This document shows positions 1,214 through 30,847 of a DNA stretch of 32,000 nt, one piece after another (position 1 is the first letter of the stretch; every line of letters begins with the position of its first letter). Where the stretch lies: positions 3,240,001-3,272,000 of the forward strand of contig NC_008312.1 of the NCBI RefSeq assembly GCF_000014265.1, written 5' to 3'. The notes beneath the pieces are model-generated. The model did no database searches. It was not told the origin of the DNA and was given only the letters and a program-made list of their open reading frames with translations. Made by a program: the position numbers and the translations under genes. The DNA comes from Trichodesmium erythraeum IMS101. GTDB lineage: Bacteria; Cyanobacteriota; Cyanobacteriia; Cyanobacteriales; Microcoleaceae.

Positions 1214-3199
1214 TTACTGCCGCATAATCCAATAACCCCCCTCTTCCGACGGTTCTAACCGACCTCTTCGCTGCCCTGGGGAAGTATTATTAATTAATAA
1301 GTCCCGTATATCTTCAAGTACCAAACGAGCATCAGCAAAATAACCATGTCCTAATAAAGTTAAATCTATCTTAGAAACTTTTACCGTGTCTATTCCTTCT
1401 ACAACAGTAACAGGGGGGAAAAAACCAGCTCGGCCATGCTGATGAATAAGCGCTGAAGTTGCTAAGGCTTTGTCTTTTGATGATATGTATAATGTAGTTC
1501 GTTCTGCTAATTGATGATATCCTTTAGCTAACTCTTTAAACAAGTCAATATCTACATCTGGAGCGGCTAAAATAATTTGCCCAAAAGCAATATTAGTTAT
1601 TGTTTGAACTTGAGAAATAATTCTTTGGACTGCTCTGAGTAAACCTCGGTTTCCCATACTATGAGCAATAATATGAATTTTCTCAATGTCCGTTTTTTCG
1701 GCTAGGTTGAGTAAAAATTCTGTCATGTACTTTTCGCTGGCTTCAATACTTGCCTCGTCTACCGGATATGCTGATAATTTCCCTTGAGATGGCCAACTAT
1801 AAAAGGCTGTAATTCCTGGCACTTGCAGGTCAAACCCCATTTGTGCGGCTCTAATAGCTGCATCTTCAAAATTGACGTTGTATCCATGAACAAAGACTAA
1901 AGCAGACCTTTCATTTATTTCATGGTCTTTTAATTCTTCGTTGATATTTTCCCAAAATAGTTCTTTTTCCAGAATTTGCAAACTTTGAAAATGTAGTTTG
2001 AGGCGATCGTCTTTGAAAGTAATTAATCTTTTCCACAAAGGGGAACCTATAGAGCCTATTTTATGAGATTTAGGAACAGCTACTTGACAAATACCATAGT
2101 GAAGTTTGTCATCTCTTTTTCCGGAAAAACCTTTGGATATATTATTTGTATCTACAGGTTTTCTGTTGGTACCAAACCATAAAGGATATATAGTTGCTGT
2201 TGTTTCTTTAGTATCTTTTAAAATCAGAGATCTTTTGACTTTTACGGTTTCTTTTTTCTTTATTGCTTTCTTTGTTACGGCTTCTTTTGAAGTCAAATAA
2301 CCGTTGGTTTGATGACTTCTTAAACTGACAGTTTCTGACTCTAATAATGATGTATCAAAAGGAATAAAATGAGGAATTGGACTATCAGGTAATCTTAAGC
2401 GTTCAATTCCATTTATACCTAGTTGAAAAGCTTGATAATAGCTCCTTTGATATGCTAAACCTTGATAAAATTCTTCGGCAAATATCAAAGCAGAATCATC
2501 ACCAATCTCTTTTTTCATGCCAATAACACAACCTACCTGGTGAGCGACTGCATCAGCTTTTTTCAGAGAAAAACAGGCATTAAATACAACACATTCTATA
2601 GGTTTTCCATCTTTTCTAACAATAGATAATAATTCTGATAATGTTTCGAGGGATAAAACCTCTGCCTCACCTTGACGGTTGTTTAAAATTATTTCACCTT
2701 GAGAATTACCATGACCGCTAAAGTGAAGAATTCTAGGCTCATATTTCAGCAAATATTGAGATAAATCTTCTATAAAAGCATTTTCTTCTCCATAAACAAT
2801 ATAATTTTTTCCAAATTCTGTCTGCTGTAGTTTTTCCCTAATTAATTCAGTTTCTTTTTTTAATTGTAGTGGCTGTGTAGTTGTAGGGTTTGCTGCTAAA
2901 ACCAAAACATCACATTTTTCAATTGGAGGCGGAGGGGGATTTTCTCCTAATTTTGACTCATACTCTTGATAAACTTTTGGATTAATATTTTTAATGCCTT
3001 CAAGTAACCGCTCAATTTCTCTATGTTTGTCAGCATATTCAATTAAAATTCTGACTCTTTGCTTTTTATTTTGTCCATTTGTAAATTGGTTATAAACATC
3101 AGGAAAATAATCATAAACTAAGTCGTTAAATTCTTCTTCGGGTAGATCTTGATTAAGTAATTCCCGAATGACTTTTCTGAGTCTGAAATTATATAACAT
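1214..3199 (-). CDS. Three-module effector protein: N-terminal effector-associated domain, CHAT (caspase-fold) protease, and C-terminal DUF900-type alpha/beta hydrolase
   Basis: 661-aa ORF. Residues 1-85 form the EAD-like helical domain, followed by a PPPPP linker. The CHAT dyad context is ILHFSGHG (His163, nt 2711-2713) and VVFNAC (Cys209). The C-terminal half has VFVHGYN, the nucleophile elbow AHSMG (Ser514), AAPDVD and LLGHGY, which is typical of the DUF900 esterase/lipase family. Confidence 0.85.
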   Translation of the reverse strand: MLYNFRLRKVIRELLNQDLPEEEFNDLVYDYFPDVYNQFTNGQNKKQRVRILIEYADKHREIERLLEGIKNINPKVYQEYESKLGENPPPPPIEKCDVLVLAANPTTTQPLQLKKETELIREKLQQTEFGKNYIVYGEENAFIEDLSQYLLKYEPRILHFSGHGNSQGEIILNNRQGEAEVLSLETLSELLSIVRKDGKPIECVVFNACFSLKKADAVAHQVGCVIGMKKEIGDDSALIFAEEFYQGLAYQRSYYQAFQLGINGIERLRLPDSPIPHFIPFDTSLLESETVSLRSHQTNGYLTSKEAVTKKAIKKKETVKVKRSLILKDTKETTATIYPLWFGTNRKPVDTNNISKGFSGKRDDKLHYGICQVAVPKSHKIGSIGSPLWKRLITFKDDRLKLHFQSLQILEKELFWENINEELKDHEINERSALVFVHGYNVNFEDAAIRAAQMGFDLQVPGITAFYSWPSQGKLSAYPVDEASIEASEKYMTEFLLNLAEKTDIEKIHIIAHSMGNRGLLRAVQRIISQVQTITNIAFGQIILAAPDVDIDLFKELAKGYHQLAERTTLYISSKDKALATSALIHQHGRAGFFPPVTVVEGIDTVKVSKIDLTLLGHGYFADARLVLEDIRDLLINNTSPGQRRGRLEPSEEGGYWIMRQ

Positions 3200-3856: not shown

Positions 3857-5767
3857 CTATTCAGGAGTCCTGGGGGGGAAACTCACAAGACGAAAACCAA
3901 AATTGGAGCTGACCACCACGACCGAGACATAGTAGCCGCGGCTCGCAGAGCGACACCACCCAGGATAGTTGAGCCAGGAGCCGCCACGAAGCACTCTACC
4001 GCTACTATCGCCTCCATTTACCCAAGCACTTCCATCAACAGGTGCTCCATCATAATTACTATGCACAACATCCTGACACCACTCCCAGACATTCCCATGC
4101 ATGTCATATAGACCAAAAGCATTAGGTGGAAACTCACCTACAGGAGTTGTTTGTTCTCTATATTCTCCTTTTGGTTCATCAGCATAAGTCTCTGAAGCTC
4201 TATAATTAGCTAATTCTCCTGTGATAGTTTCTCCAAAATAAAAAGGTGTAGTTGTCCCAGCACGACAGGCATATTCCCATTCTGCTTCACTCGGTAGTCT
4301 ATAGTCTCTTCCTGTTTTCTTAGAGAGCTTTTGACAAAATTCTGTAGCGTTATTCCAACTTACTCTTTCCACAGGGCGATTTTTTCCTTTAAATTTCGAA
4401 GGATCATTTCCCATTATTGCTTGCCACTGTTGTTGAGTAACGACATACTTTCCCATCCAAAATTCTGGCACATCTACATGATGTTGCGGACCTTCATTAT
4501 CACTTCTCTGTGCTTCCGTCTCTGGAGACCCCATCAGAAAACTACCACCGGGTATTTTTACCATTTCCAGAGTAACTCCATTACCTAAATTTTCTATCAT
4601 TACTTCTGCTTCACCTTCAGAGCGGCTTATTATTTCTCCTTTCCTGTTAACTTTAGGAGTCGCAAATGTATGAATAGTAATTTTTGGCTGTGACTTTGTT
4701 TTTATTTGTGAGTTTGGTTCTAACTTCCGTTGTGACTGTAGTGAAGTTTGAATATTTGAACCTTCTAATACTTCTGTTGATCTTGGTTGTTGAGTTTCTG
4801 AAACCGGTAAATTCTGAAAATAACCTAGATCTAACTGTGGGGTGGAAACCAACTGAGATCTAAACCGATCAACAGCAATTTTCTGCAGAGCCTTAACTGC
4901 TTCAAGATCCAAACCTACCTCTAAAACTCTTATCCATAGTTGTTCTGCCCAATTAAAATCTCCATTTGTTTGAGCTCTGTAAGCGTCAATTTTCAGAGTA
5001 GAAACATCAGTTTTTGTTGCATACTTCGGCATTAAAATTAAATGAGACTTTTCAATAGGGTCAGCAATAATACGAGGGGTCTGTCGTTTTCCTTCCTTTT
5101 GAGCTAGCTCTTGCACCCGATACTTCAGATATTCATTCAGTCTTTCTGCAGTTGCTTTTTGACCCTTACTACCTAACCCCTCTAATAACGCATAAGTAAA
5201 AACTCCCTGTTGCAACTCTTCTAATTCCCAAGAACGTTCATTTGGACTACAAGAAAAAATAGTTACTATCCCCTTTTCACGAGCTTCTTGTTCTGTTTGC
5301 CTTCCTAGTCCTTCTCCCCCTTTTCCCCCATCACTTTTGTTTCTACAAGCATCCAATATTAGAACTATATTATCTGCTCCAGATTTTTGCAGTTGTTGAA
5401 TAATATAGTCAACAGAAATTCCACTTCTTTCAACATTTGAATGACCATCAATAGGAATTAAATAATCAATATTATTATTCTCTCTATGACCATGGCCGCT
5501 AAAAAAAAACCAAAGGTTATCACCAGTTTTCAGAGATAGTTTTTTAACTTCATCTTCTAACACCAATTCTAAGCGGGAACGAGTTGGGCGAGTTGAAGCA
5601 CCATTAATTTTTGGAGAATTATCTGACAAGTAAAAAACGTCATCAAAATCTGCTTCGTCGAGCAAAAAATCCCTCATTTTTTTAGCGTCATTAGCTGCAT
5701 ATTTTAGAGGAGTCAAAAACTCATATTCCTGAACTCCTATAGTAATTGCTATATTTTGATTGGTCAT
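3857..5767 (-). CDS. Orthocaspase (peptidase C14) fused to a C-terminal FGE-sulfatase / C-type-lectin-fold domain
   Basis: 636-aa ORF. The caspase dyad context is WFFFSGHGH (His92) and LILDACRN (Cys141). The C-terminal ~270 aa carry FGE-family motifs (IPGGSFLMGSP, VDVPEFWMGKYVVTQQQW, RLPSEAEWEYACRAGT, GLYDMHGNVWEWC, RVLRGGSW, GFRLV). Confidence 0.9.
   Translation of the reverse strand: MTNQNIAITIGVQEYEFLTPLKYAANDAKKMRDFLLDEADFDDVFYLSDNSPKINGASTRPTRSRLELVLEDEVKKLSLKTGDNLWFFFSGHGHRENNNIDYLIPIDGHSNVERSGISVDYIIQQLQKSGADNIVLILDACRNKSDGGKGGEGLGRQTEQEAREKGIVTIFSCSPNERSWELEELQQGVFTYALLEGLGSKGQKATAERLNEYLKYRVQELAQKEGKRQTPRIIADPIEKSHLILMPKYATKTDVSTLKIDAYRAQTNGDFNWAEQLWIRVLEVGLDLEAVKALQKIAVDRFRSQLVSTPQLDLGYFQNLPVSETQQPRSTEVLEGSNIQTSLQSQRKLEPNSQIKTKSQPKITIHTFATPKVNRKGEIISRSEGEAEVMIENLGNGVTLEMVKIPGGSFLMGSPETEAQRSDNEGPQHHVDVPEFWMGKYVVTQQQWQAIMGNDPSKFKGKNRPVERVSWNNATEFCQKLSKKTGRDYRLPSEAEWEYACRAGTTTPFYFGETITGELANYRASETYADEPKGEYREQTTPVGEFPPNAFGLYDMHGNVWEWCQDVVHSNYDGAPVDGSAWVNGGDSSGRVLRGGSWLNYPGWCRSASRGYYVSVVVVSSNFGFRLVSFPPRTPE
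3899..3994 (-). other. Candidate DGR variable region (VR) at the 3' end of the orthocaspase-FGE gene
   Basis: The stretch is abruptly GC-rich and adenine-poor on the coding strand. It encodes VLRGGSWLNYPGWCRSASRGYYVSVVVVSSNFGF and is dominated by NNC/NNT codons (CTC AAC TAT AGC GGC TAC TAT GTC GTC GTC AGC TCC AAT). These sit between the invariant scaffold residues GGSW, CRSA.R and GFR. No template repeat or DGR RT is present in this window. Confidence 0.4.
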
Positions 5768-7777: not shown

Positions 7778-8380
7778 TTAACCAACAGTTGGAGCCATAT
7801 CTATCTCAACTAACCCTTCTAATTCTGTAACTAAACGATCTAACTCTACTACCATCGGAGTAGAGCCAGCCTGATGAAATGCAGTCACAAGAGATCGATA
7901 ATACCAGAGCGTACCTTCTTTACCACCCTTAAATATATTCCAAAGTACATCACCTTGGGTCCGATAGTCTTTTAAAATAGACCTCACATTATGTAGTTTA
8001 TCTGCTAAAGAAACCAAGCGTACTGAAGGTGAAGCATTAGCAAGACGAGCAATATAAGCTTTTTTACGTTCTGCCCAAGGAGGTTTAGGAGTAATATCCG
8101 TTTCAGTGCAACCATCCACTATTTCAGTCACTCTCTCCCCAAAACGTGCTCTAATTTCTCCACGAACAGTTTCCCCACCTTGATCTTCTATAGCATCGTG
8201 GAGCAATGCTGCTATAGCTTCATCTTCATCAGCGCCATACTCGAGGGCAATGCTAGCCACCCCCAAAAGGTGAGAAATATAAGGAACCTTACTTCCTTTG
8301 CGAACTTGATCAGCGTGTAACTCCGCGGCGTATACTAAAGCTTGTGTAAAATGGAGCGAAAGCATCATTTTTTTAGTCAA
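7778..8380 (-). CDS. HD-domain phosphohydrolase, RelA/SpoT-type (small alarmone hydrolase-like)
   Basis: 200-aa ORF with ELHADQVRKGSKVPYISHLLGVASI and AALLHDAIED, the H..HD..D metal-binding pattern of the HD_4 family. There is no synthetase domain. Confidence 0.75.
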   Translation of the reverse strand: MTKKMMLSLHFTQALVYAAELHADQVRKGSKVPYISHLLGVASIALEYGADEDEAIAALLHDAIEDQGGETVRGEIRARFGERVTEIVDGCTETDITPKPPWAERKKAYIARLANASPSVRLVSLADKLHNVRSILKDYRTQGDVLWNIFKGGKEGTLWYYRSLVTAFHQAGSTPMVVELDRLVTELEGLVEIDMAPTVG

Positions 8381-8487
8381 AAGTTAAAAAAAATTACAAT
8401 ATAGAGCAAAAATCAATCTGTCACTTTTTAGTGCAACAATAATAGATTATTTTGCCCTTGTATTCAACTCAAACTGAGAATAATTTT

Positions 8488-8683
8488 ATGGATAAATTTC
8501 AAGTAGCAGTTATTGCTAAAACAGCAGATCCTCAACAGGTAATTTATGCAGCTTTACATCAAGATTATAGTGAAGGATTTGTATTTGATCAAAAAAATAT
8601 TTGGCCTTCAGAAACCAAATGTGGGGAAATTCTTGTTAAACGACTTTTAGTAGGCGATCGCGGACATTATGGATGTCTTGAAC
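8488..8683 (+). CDS. thyX: Flavin-dependent thymidylate synthase ThyX, exon 1
   Basis: Runs from the ATG at 8488 (MDKFQVAVIAKTADPQQVIYAALHQDYSE..GDRGHYGCLE) to the group II 5' splice site. The track ORF 8452..8709 reads through into the intron and uses an upstream TTG start. Confidence 0.8.
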
Positions 8684-9941
8684 GTGCGACTCGTTGGCCA
8701 AGAACCTAGGACAACCTAGTATAAATGGCCATCCTTAGTCAATACATGAGGATAACCTCGACTAATGGATAACTCTTATGTCCTTGGTGGTGAAATTCCA
8801 TCCGCCTTGTTGTTGGGTTGACAGCATAGGCCACAGGGTAGAGACTGAACATCAATCCCTGAAGCTGGCTTAAATGGGGTCAAAGCTTTAACTATCAAAT
8901 AAGTGAGACTTCTAGCAGAGACTAACAAGTGAACGAACAGGAAGGTAATTAAACTCTCGTAACATTCATTCATCCCAAAGATAGCTATGGGTTGTAGGCC
9001 AAAAGTCAGAGGGTCTTTGGATAATAATGTGTTCAAGCTATTATCAACAACCATACCGGATCCTCCGGGAGATTTTACCTCACTAAATTAGTCGCAATAA
9101 AGGCATAAGGGAACGAGGAAACCTCTTTAAGACACCCAAGAATATAGGTCAAAAACTTGGGAAGCCATTCAAGGTCAATCTACGCAAAGCCCGTAGGTCT
9201 TAAGGAGAGTAGGATTGGGTAAAAAAGCACAATTTATGCAGACGTACCCACTGTTAGACGTAATGTAAGGCAATAATTAGCAATAAAAAAAGCCAAAACA
9301 CTAAAAAACATTTAGGGTCACCTAAACTATTTTTAAGTGTGGCATGAAATACAAAAGATATAGGTTCCTAAAGCAGTTTTAATCCAAATTTGAAGTGGAA
9401 AAATATAAACTGGAAATTAGTCCTGAAAAATGTATTTAAGTTGTAAAAGTTAACTTACAGAGCATCCCGTTGTGGCAAACTCCGCAATATGCGTAAATAC
9501 CAAAGACTTCTGAGCAAAAGCTATTACCCTAGGCTGTTAGCTTTTAGGCACGTGACGCAAAGTTACCATAGCAGAAATAGTAAATATCCAGGGGTAAAAA
9601 AAAGAAGTCACAATACTGTCAAAGCAGCAAAAGAGTAAACATGCATCTTGTGGATTATATTTTTGACCAAGGGTATAAATTGAAACAGACCACATCGTTC
9701 CTAGGTTTGAAAGTGGTGACAACACCTATAAAAATCAACAGTTGTTGTACCAACATTGCCACAACGTTAAGACTACCAAAAATTTAAAAGCAAATTATTA
9801 GGACTCATTAAGTCCAAAGTAGAACTTTAAGGATGTGCCCTTGAATAGGGACGTTTAAGAGAGGAGCCGTGATGAGGTGAAAGTCTCACGTCCGGTTCTG
9901 AAGACAAGTCGGATCAGGTAACTTATCTGGCTTAGTTTAAC
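8684..9941 (+). mobile_element. Group II intron, ORF-less (intron-encoded protein degenerate or deleted), interrupting thyX
   Basis: The 5' end is GTGCGAC (8684-). The EBS1 candidate gttcaag (9031-9037) is exactly complementary to the last 7 exon nt, cttgaac (8677-8683). Domain V (gagccgtgatgaggtgaaagtctcacgtccggttc, 9864-9898) has the AGC triad and a GAAA loop. The 3' end is ..tttaac (AY). Removal fuses GHYGCLE|HPQITFNCGFFPHSVMQQARTHRIG in frame. The domain IV region (9192-~9560) is homologous to the IEP 5' region at 22525-22900, but ATG has become ATA and only ~0.3 kb remains before domain V. Confidence 0.85.
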
Positions 9942-11362
9942 ACCCTCAAATTACTTTTAATTGTGGATTTTTTCCCCATAGTGTTATGCAGCAAGCAAGA
10001 ACTCATAGAATAGGTTGCTGTTTGTCGGGCAATACAAAAGTTAGATTTAGGTATTCGTCTTCATCCCAAGAAGCGAAATATTATGAGGAAACAATTGAAA
10101 AATTAGCTAACTTATGGCATTACGGGAGCAAAAATCAATATACTTCTAAAGATGCAAAATGTATGCAAGAAAATATATCTAGCCGTAATATTTTTACTCT
10201 AGATACCCAAACTAACCAAATTGTTTCTAGCAAAATTACCAACATATATATTAATGGTGAAAAAGAAACTTACACAATAAAAACTGTTTCTGGTAAGGAA
10301 ATAAGAGCTACCCTAGAACACCAGTTTTGGACTAACCAAGGGTGGAAACGATTAAAAGATTTTAATAACAGCACTCAATTATGTGAAGTGCAATTAGCTG
10401 GAAATAAAGTTACTCCACAAGAAGTTAAATTTCTCGAAAAAGAAATGTTTAATGAAAAGTGGATCCCAGTAAGAAATTATGACGGATATAAAATTTATAG
10501 CTTAGATATTTTGAATTCTTACCTTATTCAAAAAGAGAATAAAGAGCATTCACGGAGCAAATCTAAAAATTGTTTACTTCCCAATTTAAATTATGGAATT
10601 AGGTATGATCGACTTTCAGAAGTAAATATAAATAGATTAGTAATGGAAAACTTGAAATTATTAGGAGAATACAAGGAACTTGAAGTCAGACATTTAAATG
10701 AGAATAGTTTTAACAACAAGCCAAAAAAATTTGCCTGGAATTCTAGCAAAAGCGACCAAATTGACAATATCAATAACAATAGTTTCTCTGATAATTCTGG
10801 TGTTTTTGTAGAGATAGAATCTATTGAAAAATTTGGCAAAGAAATTACTTATGATCTTGAAGTCGAACACCCAGAACATAATTTTATAGCCAATGGTTTA
10901 GTTGTTCATAATTCTTTCGATGTACAAAGTTATCGGTTTTGTTCGGGAAAAGTTATTGCAGTAGCAGATGGAAAAACTGATATAGAAACTGCTTTTTACT
11001 TACGTCCAGTCGGAGAATATTCTGACCGCAAAGGTAAAAAATATTATTATTCCGCCGAACAACGAGAAAAAGATTTATATTGGTGTTTAGAAGCAGCTAA
11101 GAAATACAAACTTGATATGGAACTTGGAATGTCTGAAGAACATGCCAGAGGAAAAATTCCTTTTGATTATCGTCAGCATTTTGTTGTCAGTTTTAATTGT
11201 CGTAGTTTGCTACATTTTTTAGATTTACGTTTTAAAAAGAATGCTCAATTAGAAATTCAAAAACTTTGTGAATTAATGTGGCCTCATTTTCAAGATTGGG
11301 TTCCCAATATAGCAGAATGGTATGAAAAAAATAGACTTAAAAAAGGCAAATTAGCACCTTAA
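9942..11362 (+). CDS. thyX: ThyX exon 2 (contains an in-frame intein at 10019-10912)
   Basis: The exon starts with AC, completing a His codon begun in exon 1. The extein sequence is HPQITFNCGFFPHSVMQQARTHRIGC ... SFDVQSYRF..ARGKIPFDYRQHFVVSFNCRSLLHFLDLR, matching the ThyX RHR-X7/8-S region and C-terminal motifs. Confidence 0.85.
10019..10912 (+). mobile_element. Intein (298 aa) within the ThyX signature motif, with a central HNH/NUMOD4-like homing endonuclease remnant
   Basis: Block A is CLSGNTKV at the N-terminus and block B is RATLEHQFWT. Blocks F/G are EITYDLEVEHPEHNFIANGLVVHN, followed by +1 Ser (SFDVQS). The central region EKWIPVRNYDGYKIY ... INRLVMENL ... LEVRHLNENSFNN parallels NUMOD4 + HNH_3 endonucleases. 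The N-terminal boundary could instead be one codon earlier (10016). Confidence 0.85.
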
Positions 11363-11478
11363 AAACAACCCTAAAAATAACTGATAAATGATAACTAAAA
11401 TCACACATTTTTCAACGATAATCTAAAATCAACGAAACTCCCTATTCTCAATAAACTCCCTATTCCTTATTACCTATT

Positions 11479-11907
11479 ATGAAACTGAAAATCAAAAAGT
11501 TAGATGAATTAGCAATTATTCCTTTTTATGCTCATAAAGGAGATGCTGGATTAGATTTATTTTCTATTGATGAGTCAACAATTAATCCAGGGGAAAGTAA
11601 ACTGATTCATACAGGTATTTCCATAGAATTACCATCAGGAACAGAAGCACAAATTCGCCCGCGAAGTGGATTAGCATTAAAACATCAAATTACTGTTTTA
11701 AATACCCCCGGAACTATCGACGAAACTTACCGAGGAGAAATAGGAATAATTCTGATAAATCATGGCAAAAATTCTTTTCAAGTAACAAAAAGAATGAAAA
11801 TAGCCCAAATGGTAATAACGTCAGTTTTATCTGTTAAGGTAGAAGAAGTCAATCAATTAAGTACAACTCAAAGAGACATTAATGGATTTGGTTCAACAGG
11901 AACATGA
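11479..11907 (+). CDS. dut: dUTP diphosphatase
   Basis: 142-aa ORF with the trimeric dUTPase motifs [36 protein letters not shown] and GFGSTG. Confidence 0.9.
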
Positions 11908-12446
11908 GAGAACAAATATATCAAAGACCAAGCTGGGATGAATACTTTTTAATGATTGCCAAATTAGCTGCTACTCGCTCAACTTGTTTAGCTTTTCCAG
12001 TAGGAGCAGTTATAGTTAAAGATAAACAAGTTTTGGCAACTGGTTATAATGGGCCTCCTTCTGGTTCTAATCATTGTACAAGCCAAGGTTTTTGTTATCC
12101 TGAATTAAGTAGTTGTGATGCCAGTAAAGCTTTACCATCTCGTTCTGTTCATGCAGAAGCTAATGCTATTGCTCAAGCGGCAAAACATGGTATTTGTACG
12201 AATGGAGCAATTATTTATGTCACCTTAGAACCCTGCATTTATTGCTTAAAATTAATTATTTCTTCTGGTATTAAAGAAGTTTTTTATGAGACGTCTTTTA
12301 ATAGTGGGGGAAAAGCGGCTTTAAGAGATTTATTTATTCAAGATGGTTTAGTTTCCCTTAAGCAAGTTTCTCTCTCAGATACAATTGCTAAAAAAGCAGC
12401 AACATTTCTACTTGATCCTACTTCTATTAGTAAAGTTTCTCGGTAG
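11904..12446 (+). CDS. dCMP deaminase (ComEB/cytidine-deoxycytidylate deaminase family)
   Basis: 180-aa ORF with [20 protein letters not shown] and the zinc motifs HAEANAI and EPCIYC. The start overlaps the dut stop in ATGA (11904-11907), implying translational coupling. Confidence 0.85.
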
Positions 12447-13012
12447 TACTAAACAAGTAATGATTTTGTTTATTTACCTTATAGTAATTCAAGGGATATA
12501 TCAACCTACATCCTGACATTTTTAAGACTACCAGTTTTTCAACTTGAAGAATAACAATAGTAAACCCGTTAAGGATAGAAAGTAGGCACTATGAAGGTAA
12601 ATAATTTATGTTGAATAGTTATAAAGTAATTGAAAAAAATGCACTTTTGATAACCGGAATAGGCTAATATACAGTGCATTTGCTAGTTTATGAGGTGAAT
12701 TAGTATTAGCTTCTTAGATAGTTTTTAAAGTATAGAATTAAGTTTTAATTTTTGTTGATTCAATCTACTGAAATAACCATACTATACTTTACTAAAAATA
12801 GGCTATACTATATTTAATATATAATAATTATAGCATTTATTCATGAAGTTTCACTTAATATAAAGATCAGAATAGTCAGTTTAATAAGGCCTTAAGTAAC
12901 AAAACTATAATGATGAGGAAAAATTATTAATTGTCTTCTTAAAAAGAAATATTATTAGTAGGTAGGCATAAAAAAGTTTAGCTATATTAAAAAAAAAATT
13001 CTACTAATTTCA

Positions 13013-13042: not shown

Positions 13043-13279
13043 ATTTGCCTTTTGTGACATAGGAAAAAAATTTAACCCTAGCTGACTTAGGAGATTAATT
13101 ATTATCACTAAATTGGGGGAAATGATCGTTATTCTCTGTAGTTTATAGCCTATGCCATATATTTTTCAGTCAATATGCTCTTACCCTATATTTAAAAATA
13201 GAAAGCACATTATGAAAAGTAAAAACATCATCCTTAACCCAATTTTGCCAGTCAAATTTTTAGTAAGTTTTTTACCTTT

Positions 13280-13838
13280 GCTAAGAATTTGAAAATTCAA
13301 GTTGAATTTAATCCGGCAAAAGTACAAGCTTATCGTTTAATTAGCCATGAAAATTGACTGTTACGTTCTCAAGATTTTAATGACAATACAAAAGATGCGG
13401 GAGATTTTGGTACAGGATATTTGGTTACGGCACTTTATGAAATTATTCCAGTGGGAGTAGAAAGTAATATGAAATTATCAGAAGTTTATCAATTGAGATA
13501 TCAAGATAATTAAGTTTATCAACCAGCTTAATAATAGTGGTCAATTAATATTAGTTAAGTTGTGTTATAAGGAGCAAAATGGTAAAAATTCTGAGTTAAT
13601 TCAACAGCCCGATGTTAATAAGGGAGTAAGTTTCAATAATGCTTCAAATGGTTTTAAATTTGCTGCTGCTGTGGCTGAGTATGGAATGATTTTACGAGAT
13701 TCTGAAAATCAAATTGATGCTAGTTTAAATAAAGTATTGAAGTTAGCAAATGAGTCGAATGGTTTAGATTTAGAAAGTTATCGGAGTGAGTTTATTAATA
13801 TGGTTGAAAGTAGCCAGAAATTGATGGGTCAAAAGTAG
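13280..13838 (+). pseudogene. C-terminal remnant of a YfbK-like von Willebrand factor A protein (DUF3520-type region)
   Basis: It reads AKNLKIQVEFNPAKVQAYRLISHEN* LLRSQDFNDNTKDAGDFGTGYLVTALYEIIPVG... An in-frame TGA at 13355-13357 sits where homologues have Arg (YENR). A further stop follows, then the ORF-track fragment 13560-13838 (..FKFAAAVAEYGMILRDS..SYRSEFINMVE). The vWA domain itself is missing upstream. Confidence 0.7.
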
Positions 13839-13979: not shown

Positions 13980-15836
13980 TTATTTTTCAACATCTTGAAT
14001 AGAACAAGATTCTTTTCTATTTTTATTCAAAAAGTCTCTAATTTTTATCGGAGAAGAACTTGCATCTGGAATTTTAGGATGATCTCGTTGAAACAAAGAT
14101 TCATTGTATGCTGCTTCAGTAATTTCTAACAAAGCCATAACATTTTTTTTGATATTGTTAAGCTCTTGTCTGATTTCCTCCCAGTCTAAACCTTCTTCTA
14201 TAAATATAATGAGTAAATTAATCCAACCACCCCAAAATTTTGAGTAAATAAAAGAAGTATTTCTTGTTTTATTTCTACTTTTTAAGTTATCTTCATCTCT
14301 ATTAAAAGTTGAAAAAATATAGTTAAAATAACGCTCAAATAAAGCTGTTCCTTTTTCTACTAATGTTTCTTTTTCAGATAATTTTTCTATAGTTGAATCA
14401 AATAATTTCTCATATCCATCTTTTTTTAAAAGAGTATTCCTAACTTTGGCTTTTGTTAACTGTTCGATCTTTGTAATGTTTGTAATTTTTTTAATTGCCT
14501 CAATAATTATTCCAGCATCAATAATACCTTTATTTGCTTTATCCGACGTTAGATTAAAAAATTGCTTAAAGTTTTGTCTAGTATTTAAATTGACAATAAT
14601 CTTTGTAGCAATTACTTTTGGCTCTTTACTTCCCAATTCATAAGCAATTTTATCTGTATGAGTTATTTCTACTTTTGTTTGATTCATATTGATTTCTAGA
14701 AATACTTTAGCGCTAAACTTATTAATAATTTCTTGATTCTCAGTTTTAAAATCAACTGCTGTCACCATTATTTTACAATCATTTTGCATAATTGATTTGA
14801 CCTTTTGATCCGCATAAGAAAATAATCTATGTTGACCATCAATTACAGAAATACTTCCATACTTTCTAGGAATATACAAACAACCATCGTTACGTTCGTC
14901 ATATGTACATTCTTTAGATAGAACCACCAAAATATTAGATGGGAAAATAAAATCAGGATTTGTTAATAAATTTTCCCTGATTTTTTTTAATTTATCGGGT
15001 ATTAAAGGTCTTTGATAATTATAGGTTGAACTATCCTCTAATAAAGGAAGTTCATCTTGTCTATATACACGAACTATATTTAGTATCTTGTATGGGGATA
15101 TAGTAAATGTATACAAATCTGATAAAGGTGCATCATTATCTTTTTTACTAATTTGCTTATTAGTACTTCTAATTAGTTGATGATATTTCTTATCAATTGA
15201 AATAGAAGTTTTATCTATCTCGTCATCGATTTTAAATAAATTTAAAAAATAGTTTCTAGTGTATTCTCCTATATCGTCAGAATATTCCTTTAATCTCATA
15301 TAATCTGATTTATAAAATTTAACTATATCCCTCGCTTCTGGTAAATCAATTCTGCCTTCTCCATTGCCTTCTTCTACAGTTGTAGTAATGAAAAATCCTT
15401 TAATTGACTGTATATTTCTAAATTTTCTTATATGTTCTGTTTTTATACCTAATTTTTGCCAAATATAATCGGAAAATTCTAACTTTTTAATTATATTGAT
15501 TTGATTAATAAACTTTTTATACTTTGTATTGATTTTTCCTTCATCTCTTGATGTTATTTCACCTATTAAACAAACTTTATCTATAGGTATCATGTAATCA
15601 AATTCAAGATGCTCGTTGTTTGGATATTCTGGTGCTATATCTTTTAACTGTACTTGACCTAAATCATTAAAACAATCTAATCCAATAGCTTCAAAAATAC
15701 ATTTTCCTTCTTGTTCGAGTTCTTTTCCTGATTTTCCTTGTAAAGATTTATTCATATTTTGCAATGATGTATAGCTAAAAAATCCAAAATTTATATAAAT
15801 ATAAATATAAATATTAATATTTCCTCTGTACATCAC
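13980..15836 (-). CDS. DGQHR-domain (DndB-like, ParB/sulfiredoxin-fold) protein with an unassigned ~230-aa N-terminal domain
   Basis: The three hallmark motifs are YQRPL (aa 274-278), VIDGQHRL (DGQHR = nt 14826-14840) and FLEINMNQTKV (aa 379-389). The start is uncertain. The GTG/ATG at 15836/15833 directly abuts AGGAGG but adds a low-complexity NIYIYIYI leader. The ATG at 15755 (MNKSLQGKSG) is the conservative alternative. Confidence 0.8.
   Translation of the reverse strand: MMYRGNINIYIYIYINFGFFSYTSLQNMNKSLQGKSGKELEQEGKCIFEAIGLDCFNDLGQVQLKDIAPEYPNNEHLEFDYMIPIDKVCLIGEITSRDEGKINTKYKKFINQINIIKKLEFSDYIWQKLGIKTEHIRKFRNIQSIKGFFITTTVEEGNGEGRIDLPEARDIVKFYKSDYMRLKEYSDDIGEYTRNYFLNLFKIDDEIDKTSISIDKKYHQLIRSTNKQISKKDNDAPLSDLYTFTISPYKILNIVRVYRQDELPLLEDSSTYNYQRPLIPDKLKKIRENLLTNPDFIFPSNILVVLSKECTYDERNDGCLYIPRKYGSISVIDGQHRLFSYADQKVKSIMQNDCKIMVTAVDFKTENQEIINKFSAKVFLEINMNQTKVEITHTDKIAYELGSKEPKVIATKIIVNLNTRQNFKQFFNLTSDKANKGIIDAGIIIEAIKKITNITKIEQLTKAKVRNTLLKKDGYEKLFDSTIEKLSEKETLVEKGTALFERYFNYIFSTFNRDEDNLKSRNKTRNTSFIYSKFWGGWINLLIIFIEEGLDWEEIRQELNNIKKNVMALLEITEAAYNESLFQRDHPKIPDASSSPIKIRDFLNKNRKESCSIQDVEK
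15795..15818. repeat. Hexamer microsatellite (ataaat x3 plus attaat) in the 5' leader or extension of the DGQHR gene
   Basis: Read directly: ataaat at 15795-15800, 15801-15806 and 15807-15812, then attaat at 15813-15818. Confidence 0.7.
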
Positions 15837-20680: not shown

Positions 20681-22474
20681 ATGACTCAAGATTTTGGTTT
20701 ATGTTCTAAATTTCCCTACCTGGCTAGAAGTACTGTAGAGGAAGGTATATCAAAACGTCATCGCTTAGGACAAGCACTCATAATGATGTTATTGATTACC
20801 AGCTTTATTAGTATCCATGCTTATCGTATAGTACAATTACAATTAGTTCAAGGAGAATATAACCGGGAACGTGCAGACAACAACCGTGTTCGCTTAACAC
20901 CAGTACCATCAAGTCGTGGCACTATCTACGATCGCAAAGGTAAAGTATTAGCAGGTAACTTCCTTTCTCGCTCTGTATATTTATGGCCAAGCGAATACTC
21001 ACCTGCAAAATGGTTGGAGGTAGCAACGGAGCTTAGTCTAATCTTAGATATTCCAGTGGCTGATATTATTAACAAGTTAAATAAAGCTGGCTATAAATCA
21101 GCCTTACCCGTCAGAATTACCTCAAACATGGACCGCACTACTTTTGTCGCATTAGCAGAAAAAGTAGGTGAGACAAGAGGAATAGAGATTCGTACTGAAA
21201 ATACTCGTTACTATCCTCATGGCACTCTAGCAGCTCATTTATTAGGATATACTGGTGAAGCAACCAAAGAAGAATTAATCGCTAACCCCAAATATCCAAT
21301 GGGAATGATCGTGGGAAAAATGGGAATCGAATATTCAGCAAATTCAAAACTAGAAGGAGTTTGGGGTAATCGTTTAATTGAAGTTGACGCCAAAGGTAAT
21401 GAAATTCAAGAGTTAGGAATAGAAAATCCGATTCCAGGCAAACCAGTAAAATTAACCATTGATTTTGATATCCAAAAAACTGCAGAAAAAGCGTTAGGAA
21501 ATCGCCGGGGTGCCGTAGTTGCAATTAATCCTAAAACAGGAGAAGTCTTAGCAATGGCAAGCGGACCCACATTTAACCCCAGTATATTTGCAGGCCAAGT
21601 GACCAGGGAAAAATGGCAACATCTTCAAGGTGCAAGCAAGCCTTTTTTGAATCGCGCTCTTCAGGGTTATCCTCCAGGAAGCACTTTCAAAGCTGTTACT
21701 TCTGTTGCGGCCCTACAGTCTGGCAAATATTCTCCTAACTCCAAAGTTGGAACTTACAATGCTGTAACTATTGGTGGTATAACTTTTAATGAACATAGTG
21801 GTGGTTATGGATTAATTGGCTTTCGGGATGCTTTAGCTTACAGTAGTAATACATTTTACTATCAAGTAGGTGTAAAAACAGGCCCGGAACAAATTTCTAA
21901 GTGGGGGCGAGAGTTAGGTATTGGTGGCAGTATTGACTTCAAACTATTCGGACTCAATGGTAGTCATGGTCAAATCCCTACTCCCAAGGAAAAAGAAAAA
22001 ATATATGGGGAACCTTGGCATATTGCTGATATTGTGACGATGGGAATAGGTCAGGGTTTGGTATTGGTAACACCTTTAGAATCTTCAGTTATGGTAAGTA
22101 CGATCGCTAATGGTGGGTATCGAGTGCAACCTCATTTATTTGCTTCTGACACTAATACTGATACTACTAAACCAATTAGTACCGGACTAAAACCTTCAAC
22201 TCTTAAAACAGTGCGAGAAGGATTAATTGATGTAGTTAGGAAGGGTACTGCTCGTCGGTTGAATGATGGTACTATTCCATTATCCGGGGGTAAAACTGGT
22301 ACAGTGGAACTTCCAGGGCAAGCTGATAACGCAATGTATATAGGTTTTGCACCTGCCTATAATCCTGAAATTGCTGTAGCGATTGCAGTTGAAGGCGGTG
22401 GTTACGGTTCGGTAGGAGCTGCTCCCATTGCCAAAGCAATTTTTGATACCTATTTTGGTAATCAAGGAAAATAA
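20681..22474 (+). CDS. mrdA: Penicillin-binding protein 2 (peptidoglycan D,D-transpeptidase, elongasome)
   Basis: 597-aa ORF with an N-terminal TM anchor, the PBP dimerisation region, and the transpeptidase motifs STFK (PPGSTFKAV), SSN (AYSSNTFY) and KTGT (GGKTGTVE). Confidence 0.9.
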   Translation: MTQDFGLCSKFPYLARSTVEEGISKRHRLGQALIMMLLITSFISIHAYRIVQLQLVQGEYNRERADNNRVRLTPVPSSRGTIYDRKGKVLAGNFLSRSVYLWPSEYSPAKWLEVATELSLILDIPVADIINKLNKAGYKSALPVRITSNMDRTTFVALAEKVGETRGIEIRTENTRYYPHGTLAAHLLGYTGEATKEELIANPKYPMGMIVGKMGIEYSANSKLEGVWGNRLIEVDAKGNEIQELGIENPIPGKPVKLTIDFDIQKTAEKALGNRRGAVVAINPKTGEVLAMASGPTFNPSIFAGQVTREKWQHLQGASKPFLNRALQGYPPGSTFKAVTSVAALQSGKYSPNSKVGTYNAVTIGGITFNEHSGGYGLIGFRDALAYSSNTFYYQVGVKTGPEQISKWGRELGIGGSIDFKLFGLNGSHGQIPTPKEKEKIYGEPWHIADIVTMGIGQGLVLVTPLESSVMVSTIANGGYRVQPHLFASDTNTDTTKPISTGLKPSTLKTVREGLIDVVRKGTARRLNDGTIPLSGGKTGTVELPGQADNAMYIGFAPAYNPEIAVAIAVEGGGYGSVGAAPIAKAIFDTYFGNQGK

Positions 22475-22524
22475 TTAATCAATAAAATATTTATGTCATG
22501 TTTAGTATAGTTTATGTAATAGGT

Positions 22525-23478
22525 CGTAGGTTTTAAAGAGAGTAGGATAAGGTAAAAAGCTATCAAGCTTACCTACTCACCTTTGGACATAAAGTGAAGT
22601 AATTACTAGCAATGAAAAAGGCTAGAACACTAAAAAATAATTTTGAACACCCCAAACAATGTTTAAGGGTGGCATGGGGTTTAGACGATATTCCAAGCAA
22701 AGTATGCGTCAATCATAGTCTTAAGTGGAAGAACATTGAATGGAAAAAAATAGAAAAGTATGTGTTTAAGTTGCCAAAGTTAATTTACAGAGCTTCCAGT
22801 CCTGACGAAATCTGCTTTTCGGCGCAAATACTAAAAACTTCTGAGCAAAAACTATTACTCAAGATTGCTTGCTGGCTGTGACGCACGTGAACAACCAGGG
22901 TAAGACAACTGTGGGAGTAGATGGAATTAAAGACCTAACTTCTATGCAGTAGCTCAACCTAGTTAATAGATTGAAAAGGTTTCACCACAGACTGAAAAAA
23001 AACCGCAGAGTTTGGATATTTCAACCAGGTAAGGATGAAAAACCAGCACTAGGCATACCAGCTATGGAGGATAGAGCGTTATAAATCTTAGTAAAAAGGA
23101 TTTCAACTTGTTGAGGGAAGCACTTTTGAACTGAATAGCTATGGTCTTTTCCGGAGCTCAATACATGATGCTATCCAAACTATCTTTTAGGGCATATCCA
23201 CAATATTTAAGTATAGCATATTTCGGATATATAAGGTATAGGCTAAATAGTAACAATTATGTAGTGCGGGCATATTGCCCGCATTAGCATAACTCATAAC
23301 AAGGTCAAGCGCTGTATGTTCTGGATACTGACATAGCAAAATGTTTTGAGCAGATTAGCCATGAAGCGTTATTGAAGAAAATAGGGGATACACTATATAG
23401 GCTATTGATTAAACAGTGGTTAAAGTCTGGGGTTATGGATAAGCAAAAACTGACCGAAGGCACACTATAAGGAAGATT
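22525..23478 (+). pseudogene. Dead group II intron fragment: domain IV start plus the N-terminal half of the reverse transcriptase/maturase, with stops, frameshifts and a repeat insertion
   Basis: It is homologous to thyX-intron positions 9192-~9560. The track ORF 22612-22881 is the IEP N-terminus. Downstream broken frames read ..NQGKTTVGVDGIKD.., ..VWIFQPGKDEKPALGIPAMEDRAL*.. and ..LDTDIAKCFEQISHEALLKKIG..IKQWLKSGVMDKQKLTEGTL* (RT0-RT4). Domains I-III and V-VI are absent. The fragment is truncated next to the slt stop. Confidence 0.75.
23255..23283. repeat. Small palindromic dispersed repeat inserted in the RT pseudogene
   Basis: The sequence is aattatgtagtgcgggcatattgcccgca. The first 19 nt are identical to 3421-3439. 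There is a perfect hairpin tgcgggca-tat-tgcccgca (23265-23283). It sits between RT motif fragments. Confidence 0.6.
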
Positions 23479-23486
23479 AATTAGTT

Positions 23487-29948: not shown

Positions 29949-30473
29949 TTATGCTAATATAAAAGATCGAATTCTTAGTCGCACTAAACCACATATTGTT
30001 AAGATTACTTTTTGATAATTATTATCTTTTAATCTGAATCTTTCTCTAGCAATTCCAAATATTTTAATTAATCTTATTACATGTTCTACAAATATTCTCT
30101 TTCTGGCTTTTTCTTGATTTTCTTCTTTGATTTCTAGCGGCATTTCTTTTTTTCTTGGTTTCTTTTTTGGTGTAGTAGTTCTTTCTACTCCTTCATAAGC
30201 TTTATCTCCTTGAAATTTTTGTTTTTTATCAAATTTATCCTGTTGTTTTCTTAATATTTTTACATCACTTACTGGACCTTTTTCTCCTACTATTACATCT
30301 ACTATTTCTGTTCCTTTTGGTGTCGTTATTATTTGATTTTTAAAAGTATGATTTTTATTTTTTCCTGAGTAATATTTTTCTTGGTCTTTATATTCACTTG
30401 GTCTTTCTCTACTTTGTTCTGTACTATCTACAATTAATTCTAATTCTGTTAATATCTCCTTTACCCATTCCAA
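29949..30473 (-). CDS. IS transposase orfB (DDE catalytic part)
   Basis: 174 aa; LIVDSTEQ..ERP..YYSGKNKNHTFKNQ..GDKAY..RIFVEHVIRLIKIFGIARERFR is the DDE_Tnp_4/IS5-type catalytic core. It overlaps orfA at the A12 tract in a different frame. Confidence 0.8.
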   Translation of the reverse strand: MEWVKEILTELELIVDSTEQSRERPSEYKDQEKYYSGKNKNHTFKNQIITTPKGTEIVDVIVGEKGPVSDVKILRKQQDKFDKKQKFQGDKAYEGVERTTTPKKKPRKKEMPLEIKEENQEKARKRIFVEHVIRLIKIFGIARERFRLKDNNYQKVILTICGLVRLRIRSFILA

Positions 30474-30847
30474 TTCATTTTCTTTTTTTTTTTTACTTGT
30501 TCTAATAAACTTGCTGGCAGTAATTCTCTGAGAATATCTATCCAGTAATGAAAAATATTATTAGCACTTGATTCACTTATACCAAAGTTAATTCCTAATG
30601 TTTGAAAAGTCGGTATTTGATGTAAATAAAATAACGTTAAAATTATTTCTTCCTCCTTTGTTAAATTCTTTTTTCTGACTCCACCTGCTTTAATTAATCT
30701 TTTTTCTGTTTTAGCGATCGCCTTCTTTTTCTCTGATTCTATTATTTGGGCCTTTGCTATTAATTTTATTAGCTGTTCATAAGTAATGCCAATAATTCTT
30801 TTTGTTTCTTTTGGATGGTTATAAATATATTCTAAAGTTGGATTCAT
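30461..30847 (-). CDS. IS transposase orfA (HTH_Tnp_4-like DNA-binding part)
   Basis: 128 aa; ..LTLFYLHQIPTFQTLGINFGISESSANNIFHYWIDILRELLP.. is typical of the helix-turn-helix N-terminus of IS5/Harbinger-type transposases. It ends in KKKKK, encoded by the A12 run (30483-30494). Confidence 0.8.
   Translation of the reverse strand: MNPTLEYIYNHPKETKRIIGITYEQLIKLIAKAQIIESEKKKAIAKTEKRLIKAGGVRKKNLTKEEEIILTLFYLHQIPTFQTLGINFGISESSANNIFHYWIDILRELLPASLLEQVKKKKKMNWNG

Follow-up and report, generated by a model that had tools for sequence, protein, structure and literature searches.

A group II intron and an intein both interrupt thyX, the gene for flavin-dependent thymidylate synthase, in Trichodesmium erythraeum IMS101

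The thyX gene encodes flavin-dependent thymidylate synthase (TIGR02170, PF02511), and in Trichodesmium erythraeum IMS101 public records break it into two partial ThyX ORFs and an antisense 'hypothetical protein'. Our analysis of a window of 32,000 nucleotides (the whole stretch of DNA that was analysed, to which all positions refer) confirms that a group II intron and an intein both interrupt the gene (Tery_2080/2082), and we hold, with a probability of roughly 0.93, that its product arises through two self-splicing steps, first of RNA and then of protein.

Layout of the locus

The interrupted gene, its neighbors and the ORFs annotated over it are arranged as follows.

8488..8683, + strand: thyX exon 1, from the ATG at 8488; codons 1-65 and the first base of His66
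8684..9941, + strand: group II intron of 1258 nt with the ends GTGCG...AC; no protein-coding ORF in it is intact
8776..9054, - strand: Tery_2081, annotated as a 'hypothetical protein' of 92 aa, antisense to intron domain I
9942..10018, + strand: thyX exon 2, 77 nt; remainder of His66 to Cys91
9986..11362, + strand: Tery_2082, an ORF of 458 aa starting from internal Met80; part of exon 2, the intein and exon 3
10019..10912, + strand: Ter ThyX intein, 894 nt, 298 aa, between THRIGC and SFDVQSYR
10913..11362, + strand: thyX exon 3 (C-extein), Ser92 to Pro240 and the stop codon
11479..11907, + strand: dut (dUTPase), 116 nt downstream of thyX
11904..12446, + strand: dCMP deaminase gene; its first 4 nt are shared with dut

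Joined, the three exons give a mature coding sequence of 723 nt including the stop codon (196+77+450), or 25.1% of the 2875 nt; the 687 nt (about 24%) of the original prediction was an error of arithmetic, the only one that it contained. The encoded protein of 240 aa reaches 162.1 bits against TIGR02170 (cut-off 87.9), covering model positions 2-211 of 211, and also matches PF02511 with 132 bits, while its ThyX motif (RHRxxS...S.R) takes the variant form THRIGCSFDVQSYR, which aligns to RHRIA-SLSVKSSRY in the ThyX of H. pylori (3AH5) and is common to cyanobacterial homologs. The boundaries of both insertions are confirmed by the thyX genes of L001 and about 80 other cyanobacteria, since these are uninterrupted and comprise exactly 240 codons with a continuous motif; the in-frame intein is absent from them, and its removal from the IMS101 sequence restores the motif. 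Translation of the spliced mRNA would yield a precursor of 538 aa (63 kDa), from which excision of the intein from within the ThyX motif would release a free intein of 34.9 kDa and leave an enzyme of 240 aa (28 kDa), predicted from its sequence to convert dUMP to dTMP.

The annotated pieces can be read against this structure. In unspliced RNA the reading frame ends at the TAG at 8707-8709, and the resulting product of 73 aa is the annotated Tery_2080; Tery_2082 as annotated is an artefact, and Tery_2081 is almost certainly a spurious gene call. The gene is split in the annotation because gene callers ignore introns. As had been anticipated, thyX stands at the head of a cluster for dTMP synthesis, with dut and the dCMP deaminase gene following on the same strand, and no ThyA is found among the window ORFs of 100 aa or more. 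The three genes may be co-transcribed as an operon, and thyX itself is probably essential. A scan for promoter and terminator consensus sequences gave 20 promoter-like sites where 16 would be expected; on the + strand it gave no terminator.

The intron-plus-intein layout is not a new discovery, having been known since its publication in 2004; experiments have since demonstrated the RNA splicing as well as the protein splicing, and the intein has become a laboratory tool. A paper by Liu and Yang in J Bacteriol of that year (186:6316) is said, by its title, to deal with the intron- and intein-containing thyX of Trichodesmium erythraeum, i.e. with the same strain and the same gene. Four proteins of the window are identical to IMS101 records, and the matches to ABG51321 and ABG51323 are exact; the gene carries the same pair of elements, one group II intron and one intein, its unusual ThyX motif likewise has THRIGC-S where RHR...S would be typical, and nothing substantive differs, agreement at the level of coordinates being assumed. 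The present case illustrates that a complex nested gene structure can be reconstructed exactly by reading nothing but the raw sequence. As cited in PMC4143802 and PMC4649490, selfish RNA and protein elements likewise accumulate in DNA-metabolism genes of the same organism, where introns devoid of ORFs are spliced by the maturase of a related intron; thyX differs in having just one intron and one intein, 77 nt apart.

Structure and removal of the intron

The intron, which was tested as a bacterial group II intron of IIB-like class, contains the following elements, listed together with the exon sequence that they recognize.

8669..8683, + strand: IBS2 (8669-8676) and IBS1 (8677-8683), at the 3' end of thyX exon 1
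8962..8969, + strand: candidate EBS2 ACAUUCAU, 8-bp pairing (one G-U) with 8669-8676
9031..9037, + strand: EBS1 GUUCAAG, complementary to IBS1 (8677-8683) through 7 Watson-Crick pairs
9288..9596, + strand: RVT_N remnant, N-terminus of the intron-encoded reverse transcriptase; 35.5 bits, stop codons inside
9688..9783, + strand: what is left of the intron-encoded protein's HNH endonuclease domain; 34.5 bits
9863..9899, + strand: domain V, the catalytic hairpin (Rfam and fold)
9902..9938, + strand: domain VI; its one bulged A, at 9934, is the 8th base from the intron 3' end

All coordinates proposed for an intron at 8684-9941 that splits GHYGCLE/H hold. Its ends conform to the 5' GUGYG / 3' AY rule (GTGCG at 8684-8688, AC at 9940-9941), it breaks His codon 66 as C/AC within that motif, and the Rfam match to domains V and VI, at 9862-9941, stops exactly at the proposed 3' splice site, with 47.5 bits for RF00029 (gathering score 40; E 1.6e-6 for the whole window) and 53.8 bits for RF04357 (gathering score 53). 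Folding likewise yields the bulged A at 9934 (z = -3.2), which is presumed to be the branch point. A permissive search with the Rfam models for domains I-IV returned no match in the intron at E<=1; for its 5' two-thirds the support consists of the EBS pairings and of about 80% identity to sister introns, an identity that extends over 870 nt and in which conserved blocks flank the variable EBS loops.

The element is a member of a multicopy Trichodesmium intron family and, judged by its sequence, is a deletion derivative that has kept of its protein nothing but the RVT_N and HNH remnants: the former can be aligned with residues 3-103 of a sister protein that is intact, while between the two remnants the RT core and the maturase (X) domain are deleted. 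In related MAGs, the NCBI annotation of the stretch corresponding to 9489-9638 is an RVT_N-domain protein. IMS101 is rich in gene remnants, two of which lie in this window; for a second intron fragment in the window (22300-23600) the Rfam search gave nothing.

As to the mechanism of removal, the final 15 nt of exon 1 would be bound by the EBS1 and EBS2 loops, and the attack on the 5' splice site presumably comes from the bulged A in domain VI; ligation of the exons would restore His codon 66. That the intron is spliced in the cell has been published: Table 2 of PMC4143802 (2014) lists the intron of the thymidylate synthase Tery_2080 without a maturase and with 3 RNA-seq split reads. Of the 17 introns spliced in vivo, 10 have no ORF (PMC4649490). 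The thyX intron is without an RT core and maturase domain of its own and its maturase is therefore probably supplied in trans, and efficient splicing most likely needs the product of a sister intron elsewhere in the genome.

Efficient self-splicing under physiological conditions is rare among group II introns, and this counts against the alternative that the thyX intron is autocatalytic in vivo, without any protein helper, the loss of its own maturase having been of no consequence. In favor of autocatalysis, the catalytic core, the EBS/IBS pairings and the branch-point A are all intact; however, the clade possesses sister introns with intact maturase ORFs (527 aa in L093), and trans-encoded splicing factors have been demonstrated in E. 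coli, where similar Trichodesmium introns were spliced with such help (Meng et al. 2005, as cited in PMC4649490). We consider autocatalysis unlikely and retain help in trans as the preferred reading.

The exon junction at 8683/9942, which the original prediction had singled out as the place to look, is also found joined in contigs. Contigs from four sequencing-run assemblies (L084-L087; raw SRA runs SRR15346332, SRR15346329, SRR32466012 and SRR3181806) carry the IMS101 sequence without exactly 8684-9941 and encode the predicted 538-aa precursor, and we infer that they are RNA-derived and represent the spliced form. L084 differs from the window in homopolymer lengths only, which is uninformative as to an RNA or DNA origin. 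The contigs might instead be genomic DNA of IMS101 sublines that have lost the intron precisely, the intron then being polymorphic, and their length of up to 12 kb, with genes on both strands spanned, speaks in favor of DNA. This alternative is nonetheless improbable, and distinctly more so than autocatalysis: of the DNA-based assemblies returned for the T. erythraeum clade, all ten (eight NCBI genomes and MAGs, including strain 21-75, as well as ENA and Tara metagenomes) keep the intron with identical spacing, the 538-aa form is seen solely in assemblies of raw SRA runs, and L087 (window 8364-12657) has the extent expected for a thyX-dut-deaminase transcript. Moreover, transcription extends over much of the non-coding sequence in Trichodesmium (PMC4649490), and this would account for long contigs with genes on two strands.

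The intein and the role of the locus

The second insertion had been placed at 10019-10912, 77 nt past the intron, splitting THRIGC/SFDVQSYR, and profile matches bear this out: TIGR01445 gives 36.5 bits (cut-off 24.5), TIGR01443 gives 25.7 (15.6) and PF14890 gives 66.3 (35.8). The residues of a class 1 intein are present, namely Cys1, TLEH of block B at 98-101, His-Asn at 297-298 and Ser at +1. The middle of the intein is occupied by one further feature.

10379..10789, + strand: decayed NUMOD4 and HNH_3 homing endonuclease, about residues 121-257 of the intein

This endonuclease is identified solely through the Okeania ortholog, because the IMS101 region itself shows no Pfam match even at E<=10; in the Okeania intein, NUMOD4 (30.0 bits) and HNH_3 (30.4 bits) exceed the Pfam cut-offs, and relative to it the IMS101 region has a deletion of 10 aa and reads NNKPKKF in place of DNRLENL. 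With its NUMOD4-HNH endonuclease decayed, the intein is therefore a fixed, non-mobile passenger, retained only for its ability to splice itself out.

Its engineered derivatives show the splicing domain to be highly active. A Ter ThyX intein is indeed catalogued, as the original prediction stated, and the element is an established protein-engineering tool from which mini- and split inteins have been derived (Lin et al. 2013, PMC3620165; Pinto et al. 2020, PMC7090010), and these splice with an efficiency of about 100% in cis, a figure given for the mini-intein in PMC3620165, and of 97% in trans. The engineered mini-intein has 170 aa (PMC10127266), its centre having been removed, whereas the natural one has 298 aa with the decayed endonuclease; splicing of the natural intein in E. 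coli had been demonstrated earlier (PMC3620165). By sequence, the closest solved relative is the Ssp DnaB mini-intein (PDB 1MI8), a HINT-fold protein with which blocks B, F and G align (E 5e-13), although it belongs to another host protein and another insertion site, and the endonuclease region of the natural Ssp DnaB intein differs. Taken with the published split reads for Tery_2080 (PMC4143802), the intein splicing reported in PMC3620165 and the sequence tests described above uphold the proposal that active ThyX requires RNA splicing followed by protein splicing.

The insertions might do more than splice out. In all intein-bearing alleles of Trichodesmium and Okeania the extein residue preceding the intein is Cys, with Val or Leu elsewhere, and the intron appears to rely on a factor encoded elsewhere; one could accordingly imagine that the intron, the intein or both serve as a conditional switch gating dTMP synthesis, through maturase availability or through a redox-sensitive Cys(-1)/Cys1 pair. 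We regard this as very improbable. The mini-intein splices to about 100% in a foreign context in E. coli, and endonuclease decay together with lineage-specific insertion is the pattern of purely selfish elements. Nothing indicates that either element has a function of its own; both are selfish elements that have inserted into conserved regions of a gene on which purifying selection acts.

The weakest alternative, a pseudogene in decay at this locus with dTMP supplied by salvage or by a different enzyme, could appeal to the annotation as three separate ORFs (Tery_2080, 2081 and 2082) and to the many gene remnants of IMS101, two of them within the window, but deserves next to no credence given that the split annotation is an artefact, the joined exons encode an uninterrupted full-length ThyX, the intron core and the catalytic residues of the intein are intact, splicing has been observed, and dN/dS is 0.09-0.26 in the exteins and similarly constrained in the intein splicing blocks (0.19-0.20). 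In the endonuclease region the ratio is 0.54-0.67.

Intron sites of thyX in the Trichodesmium/Okeania clade

Comparison across the clade reveals a solid pattern, for which we found no report in the searchable literature: members of one intron family have entered thyX at four different sites.

Site 1, after codon 10: T. thiebautii type and MAG_R03/R04 type
Site 2, after codon 26: T. thiebautii type and Okeania sp. SIO3H1
Site 3, within codon 66: T. erythraeum clade only
Site 4, after codon 69: T. thiebautii type, 13 nt away from site 3, the one used in IMS101

The pattern is borne by four independent assemblies, with an Rfam D5/D6 match in each intron and intact ORFs after splicing. The thyX of the T. 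thiebautii type holds three introns and an intein, and three RNA splicings and one protein splicing are therefore required for its expression, the predicted exon junctions on contig L089 being 318/1887, 1934/4008 and 4136/5968; it would rank among the most fragmented bacterial genes of its size, in what is treated as the numerically abundant Trichodesmium clade (PMC9950141).

Among five sister introns at these four sites, EBS1 covaries with the exon: every EBS1 loop can make a 7-bp helix with the exon of its own intron, and its pairing with the other exons has a lower score. A single insertion that 'slid' by 13 nt was considered as the origin of both the IMS101 intron and the third intron of the T. 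thiebautii type, and was rejected because the exon sequence is complete in either allele and the two EBS1 loops differ, each matching its own site. It is possible, at somewhat less than even odds in our estimation, that in this clade the first 210 nt of thyX serve as a recurrent landing site for a single family of group II introns, the four insertion sites being independent and the pattern more than a product of chance and tolerance.

For workers on mobile elements these comparative results may be of modest interest, in that they present sister introns whose exon-binding loops are retargeted to four nearby sites of one essential-pathway gene, and, in the same gene, a natural series of inteins whose endonuclease ranges from one that scores as intact, through a decayed one, to one that is fully deleted.

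A thyX gene interrupted by a group II intron and an intein

Four proteins of the window are identical to Trichodesmium erythraeum IMS101 records; the exon-1 product is ABG51321 (Tery_2080), and the open reading frame running through exon 2, the intein and exon 3 is ABG51323 (Tery_2082). The presence of both a group II intron and an intein in a single thyX gene, as put forward in the original prediction, is confirmed as an observation and supported in its interpretation, with all coordinates for the intron, the intein and the exons holding; the mature coding length, then given as 687 nt (24%), is actually 723 nt (25.1%).

8488-8683 (+), thyX exon 1: ATG at 8488, ThyX residues 1-65, then GTGCG at 8684
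8684-9941 (+), group II intron
9942-10018 (+), thyX exon 2: 25 further ThyX residues
10019-10912 (+), intein
10913-11362 (+), thyX exon 3: Ser at 10913, last 149 ThyX residues, stop at 11360-11362

Left unspliced, the exon-1 frame runs into a TAG stop at 8707-8709. Joining the three exons yields 723 nt and a 240-aa product that matches the equivalog model NCBIfam TIGR02170 (thyX) with 162 bits (cut-off 87.9) over positions 2-211 of 211, and Pfam Thy1 with 132 bits. About 80 cyanobacterial genomes carry an uninterrupted thyX of exactly 720 nt, and since their products align gap-free to the spliced IMS101 product, both boundary pairs are fixed independently. The intron cuts the conserved ..LEH segment 26 codons upstream of the intein, which in turn lies inside a ThyX motif (THRIGC / SFDVQSYR) that aligns to RHRIA-SLSVKSSRY of Helicobacter pylori ThyX. 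A search for thyA within the window found none there. ThyX is presumably the sole thymidylate synthase.

The combination is already known in all essentials, and only the comparative lineage pattern may be new. The Tery_2080 thymidylate synthase intron, which has no maturase, is among 17 with in vivo RNA-seq split reads (3 reads; Pfreundt et al. 2014, PMC4143802). The natural Ter ThyX intein had earlier been shown to splice in E. coli, and the mini-intein made from it splices at about 100%, a split form at 97% (Lin et al. 2013, PMC3620165), and TerThyX is part of a split-intein library (Pinto et al. 2020, PMC7090010). As far as sequence can establish them, our analysis provides the parts and their boundaries, the 5' splice-site pairings, the geometry of the catalytic core and branch point, and the intein catalytic residues; intron splicing in vivo and efficient intein splicing are established by this published work of others.

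Removal of the intron from the transcript

In Rfam, domains V and VI are recognised over 9862-9941, which takes them exactly to the 3' end of the intron (RF00029, 47.5 bits; gathering threshold 40), and a plastid-type D5 model also matches (53.8 bits); the domain I-IV models of Rfam returned no match to this intron. In the fold of the last 87 intron nt, which none of 200 shuffles reached, the two hairpins form and one A bulges out, at 9934 (eighth base from the intron 3' end). In domain I, GUUCAAG (9031-9037) perfectly complements the last 7 nt of exon 1 (7 bp), and ACAUUCAU (8962-8969) forms an 8-bp helix with the 8 nt immediately upstream of these. Inside the intron lie the remains of a protein that it once encoded: a stretch of RVT_N with stop codons aligns with residues 3-103 of an intact sister protein (Pfam, 35.5 bits), part of an HNH nuclease (9688-9783; 34.5 bits) almost adjoins it downstream, and the reverse-transcriptase core and maturase domain are absent. 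Excision would follow the lariat pathway, presumably with the help of a sister intron's maturase.

The predicted junction between 8683 and 9942 is supported by contigs lacking exactly the intron and by the published split reads for Tery_2080. A public 538-aa protein, identical to the predicted RNA-spliced precursor, is encoded on contigs assembled from four sequencing runs; these are 100% identical to the window as far as 8683 and pick it up again at 9942, the junction being ambiguous only within a shared AAC. Ten DNA-based assemblies were returned for the T. erythraeum clade, eight of them NCBI genomes or MAGs and the others ENA and Tara metagenomes, and every one retains the intron at unchanged spacing. 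No assemblies but those of raw runs have the intron-free form. On the simplest reading, the intron-free contigs would represent spliced mRNA. One such contig spans 8364-12657, the extent expected for a thyX-dut-deaminase transcript; this extent, the gene spacing (116 nt between thyX and dut, a 4-nt overlap between dut and the deaminase gene) and the conserved gene order suggest that the three genes share one transcript.

Assemblies with the locus break inside the intron (L081-L083, which cover the window from 9238, 9863 and 9879 onward), as expected of a multicopy repeat, and this explains why MAGs often show the interrupted thyX as no more than a 458-aa fragment. In the annotation, 8776-9054 on the minus strand carries a 92-aa 'hypothetical protein' (Tery_2081); lying antisense inside intron domain I and passed on to several MAG annotations, it is almost certainly not a real gene. 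A further member of the thyX intron's family, truncated, occupies the intergenic space between a PBP2 gene and an SLT transglycosylase gene (22521-23442); it has about 69% identity to an intact sister intron and carries reverse-transcriptase remnants (residues 1-245) with stop codons, but neither the 5' end nor domains V/VI.

The intein and the selection acting on it

The 298-residue insert begins with Cys1, contains a TLEH block B and ends in His-Asn, with Ser at +1; it matches the splicing models TIGR01445 (N-terminal), TIGR01443 (C-terminal) and Pfam Intein_splicing, and among solved structures the Ssp DnaB mini-intein is nearest to it in sequence. A Pfam scan of the central ~140 residues gave no match even at E<=10 in IMS101, whereas the orthologous intein of Okeania sp. 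SIO3H1 exceeds the cut-offs for NUMOD4 (30.0 bits) and HNH_3 (30.4 bits). Aligned with it, the IMS101 intein displays a 10-residue deletion and the replacements DNRLENL to NNKPKKF and HRLV to NRLV. The NUMOD4 part is absent from the T. thiebautii-type intein, and in two other lineages the entire endonuclease domain is gone.

Against four relatives, dN/dS amounts to 0.09-0.26 in the exteins, 0.19-0.20 in the intein splicing blocks and 0.54-0.67 in the endonuclease region. The low values in exteins and splicing blocks argue against a pseudogene; the host gene and the self-removal of the intein are maintained while the homing function drifts, a pattern that fits a fixed intein with no further need to home.

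Introns and inteins of thyX across lineages

Searches with the intein recovered it at the same thyX site in many Trichodesmium variants and in Okeania, and as a mini-intein in a more distant cyanobacterium; the surrounding DNA shows that the intron content of the gene varies by lineage.

Table. Introns and inteins in thyX by lineage (L-numbers are loci)
T. erythraeum clade (window): intron within codon 66; intein, endonuclease decayed
T. thiebautii type (L089-L092): introns after codons 10, 26 and 69; intein, NUMOD4 part lost
Trichodesmium MAG_R03/R04 type (L093-L095; L093 3264-5790): intron after codon 10 with intact 527-aa RT/maturase; mini-intein
Okeania sp. SIO3H1 (L088, 3373-5919): intron after codon 26; intein, NUMOD4-HNH endonuclease scores as intact
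Distant cyanobacterium (L096, 422-1690): no intron; mini-intein
MAG labelled Trichodesmium sp. jk18x7bins.61 (L001, 6001-6720): no intron; no intein

The L089 protein is 99% identical to a protein of MAG St18_bin1, a genome named as T. thiebautii in PMC9950141, and the T. thiebautii type is assigned on this ground. The three group II introns of this type (L089 319-1886, 1935-4007 and 4137-5967; the same layout in four independent assemblies, L089-L092) each open with GTGCGACTCGTTGGC and have an Rfam D5/D6 match, and once they are taken out the 527-aa precursor is intact; the IMS101 site is not among their positions. Trichodesmium thyX introns, the IMS101 copy included, share about 80% identity over domains I-III; the two codon-10 introns look orthologous, being 91% identical, and the Okeania intron has only short stretches in common with the Trichodesmium ones (about 70-83% identity). 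In five Trichodesmium introns the EBS1 loop, which pairs with the end of the upstream exon, is hypervariable inside conserved flanks, each forming a 7-bp helix with its own exon end (score 6-7, versus 2.5-5 for the exons of other insertion sites). The IMS101 site and the third T. thiebautii site, 13 nt apart, are separate insertions. We found no description of this multi-site pattern in the searchable literature. Among the members of the 90% cluster of the full 240-aa L001 ThyX are shorter intein-free ThyX proteins, 150-193 aa long, from several Okeania genomes; these are probably further intron-split or truncated thyX annotations.

Other features of the window are the following.

1214-3199 and 3857-5767 (-), each a large protein with several domains of the cell-death or effector type: EAD7, CHAT and a DUF900 hydrolase in one, caspase (Peptidase_C14) and FGE-sulfatase in the other
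13212-13835, VWA-domain gene remnant, in which just two parts of the 882-aa T. thiebautii-type ortholog (residues 1-24 and 686-882) can still be recognised
13980-15836 (-), 618-aa protein with a weak match to DndB (DNA-sulfur-modification-associated; 32.7 bits)
29949-30847 (-), two adjacent ORFs of 174 and 128 aa, the former matching DDE_Tnp_4 and DDE_Tnp_1

The match of the 174-aa ORF suggests that the pair is a split or frameshifted IS transposase. Downstream of the deaminase gene, decay of the VWA-domain gene leaves about 1.5 kb that is mostly non-coding, and long non-coding stretches lie on both sides of the gene for the 618-aa protein.
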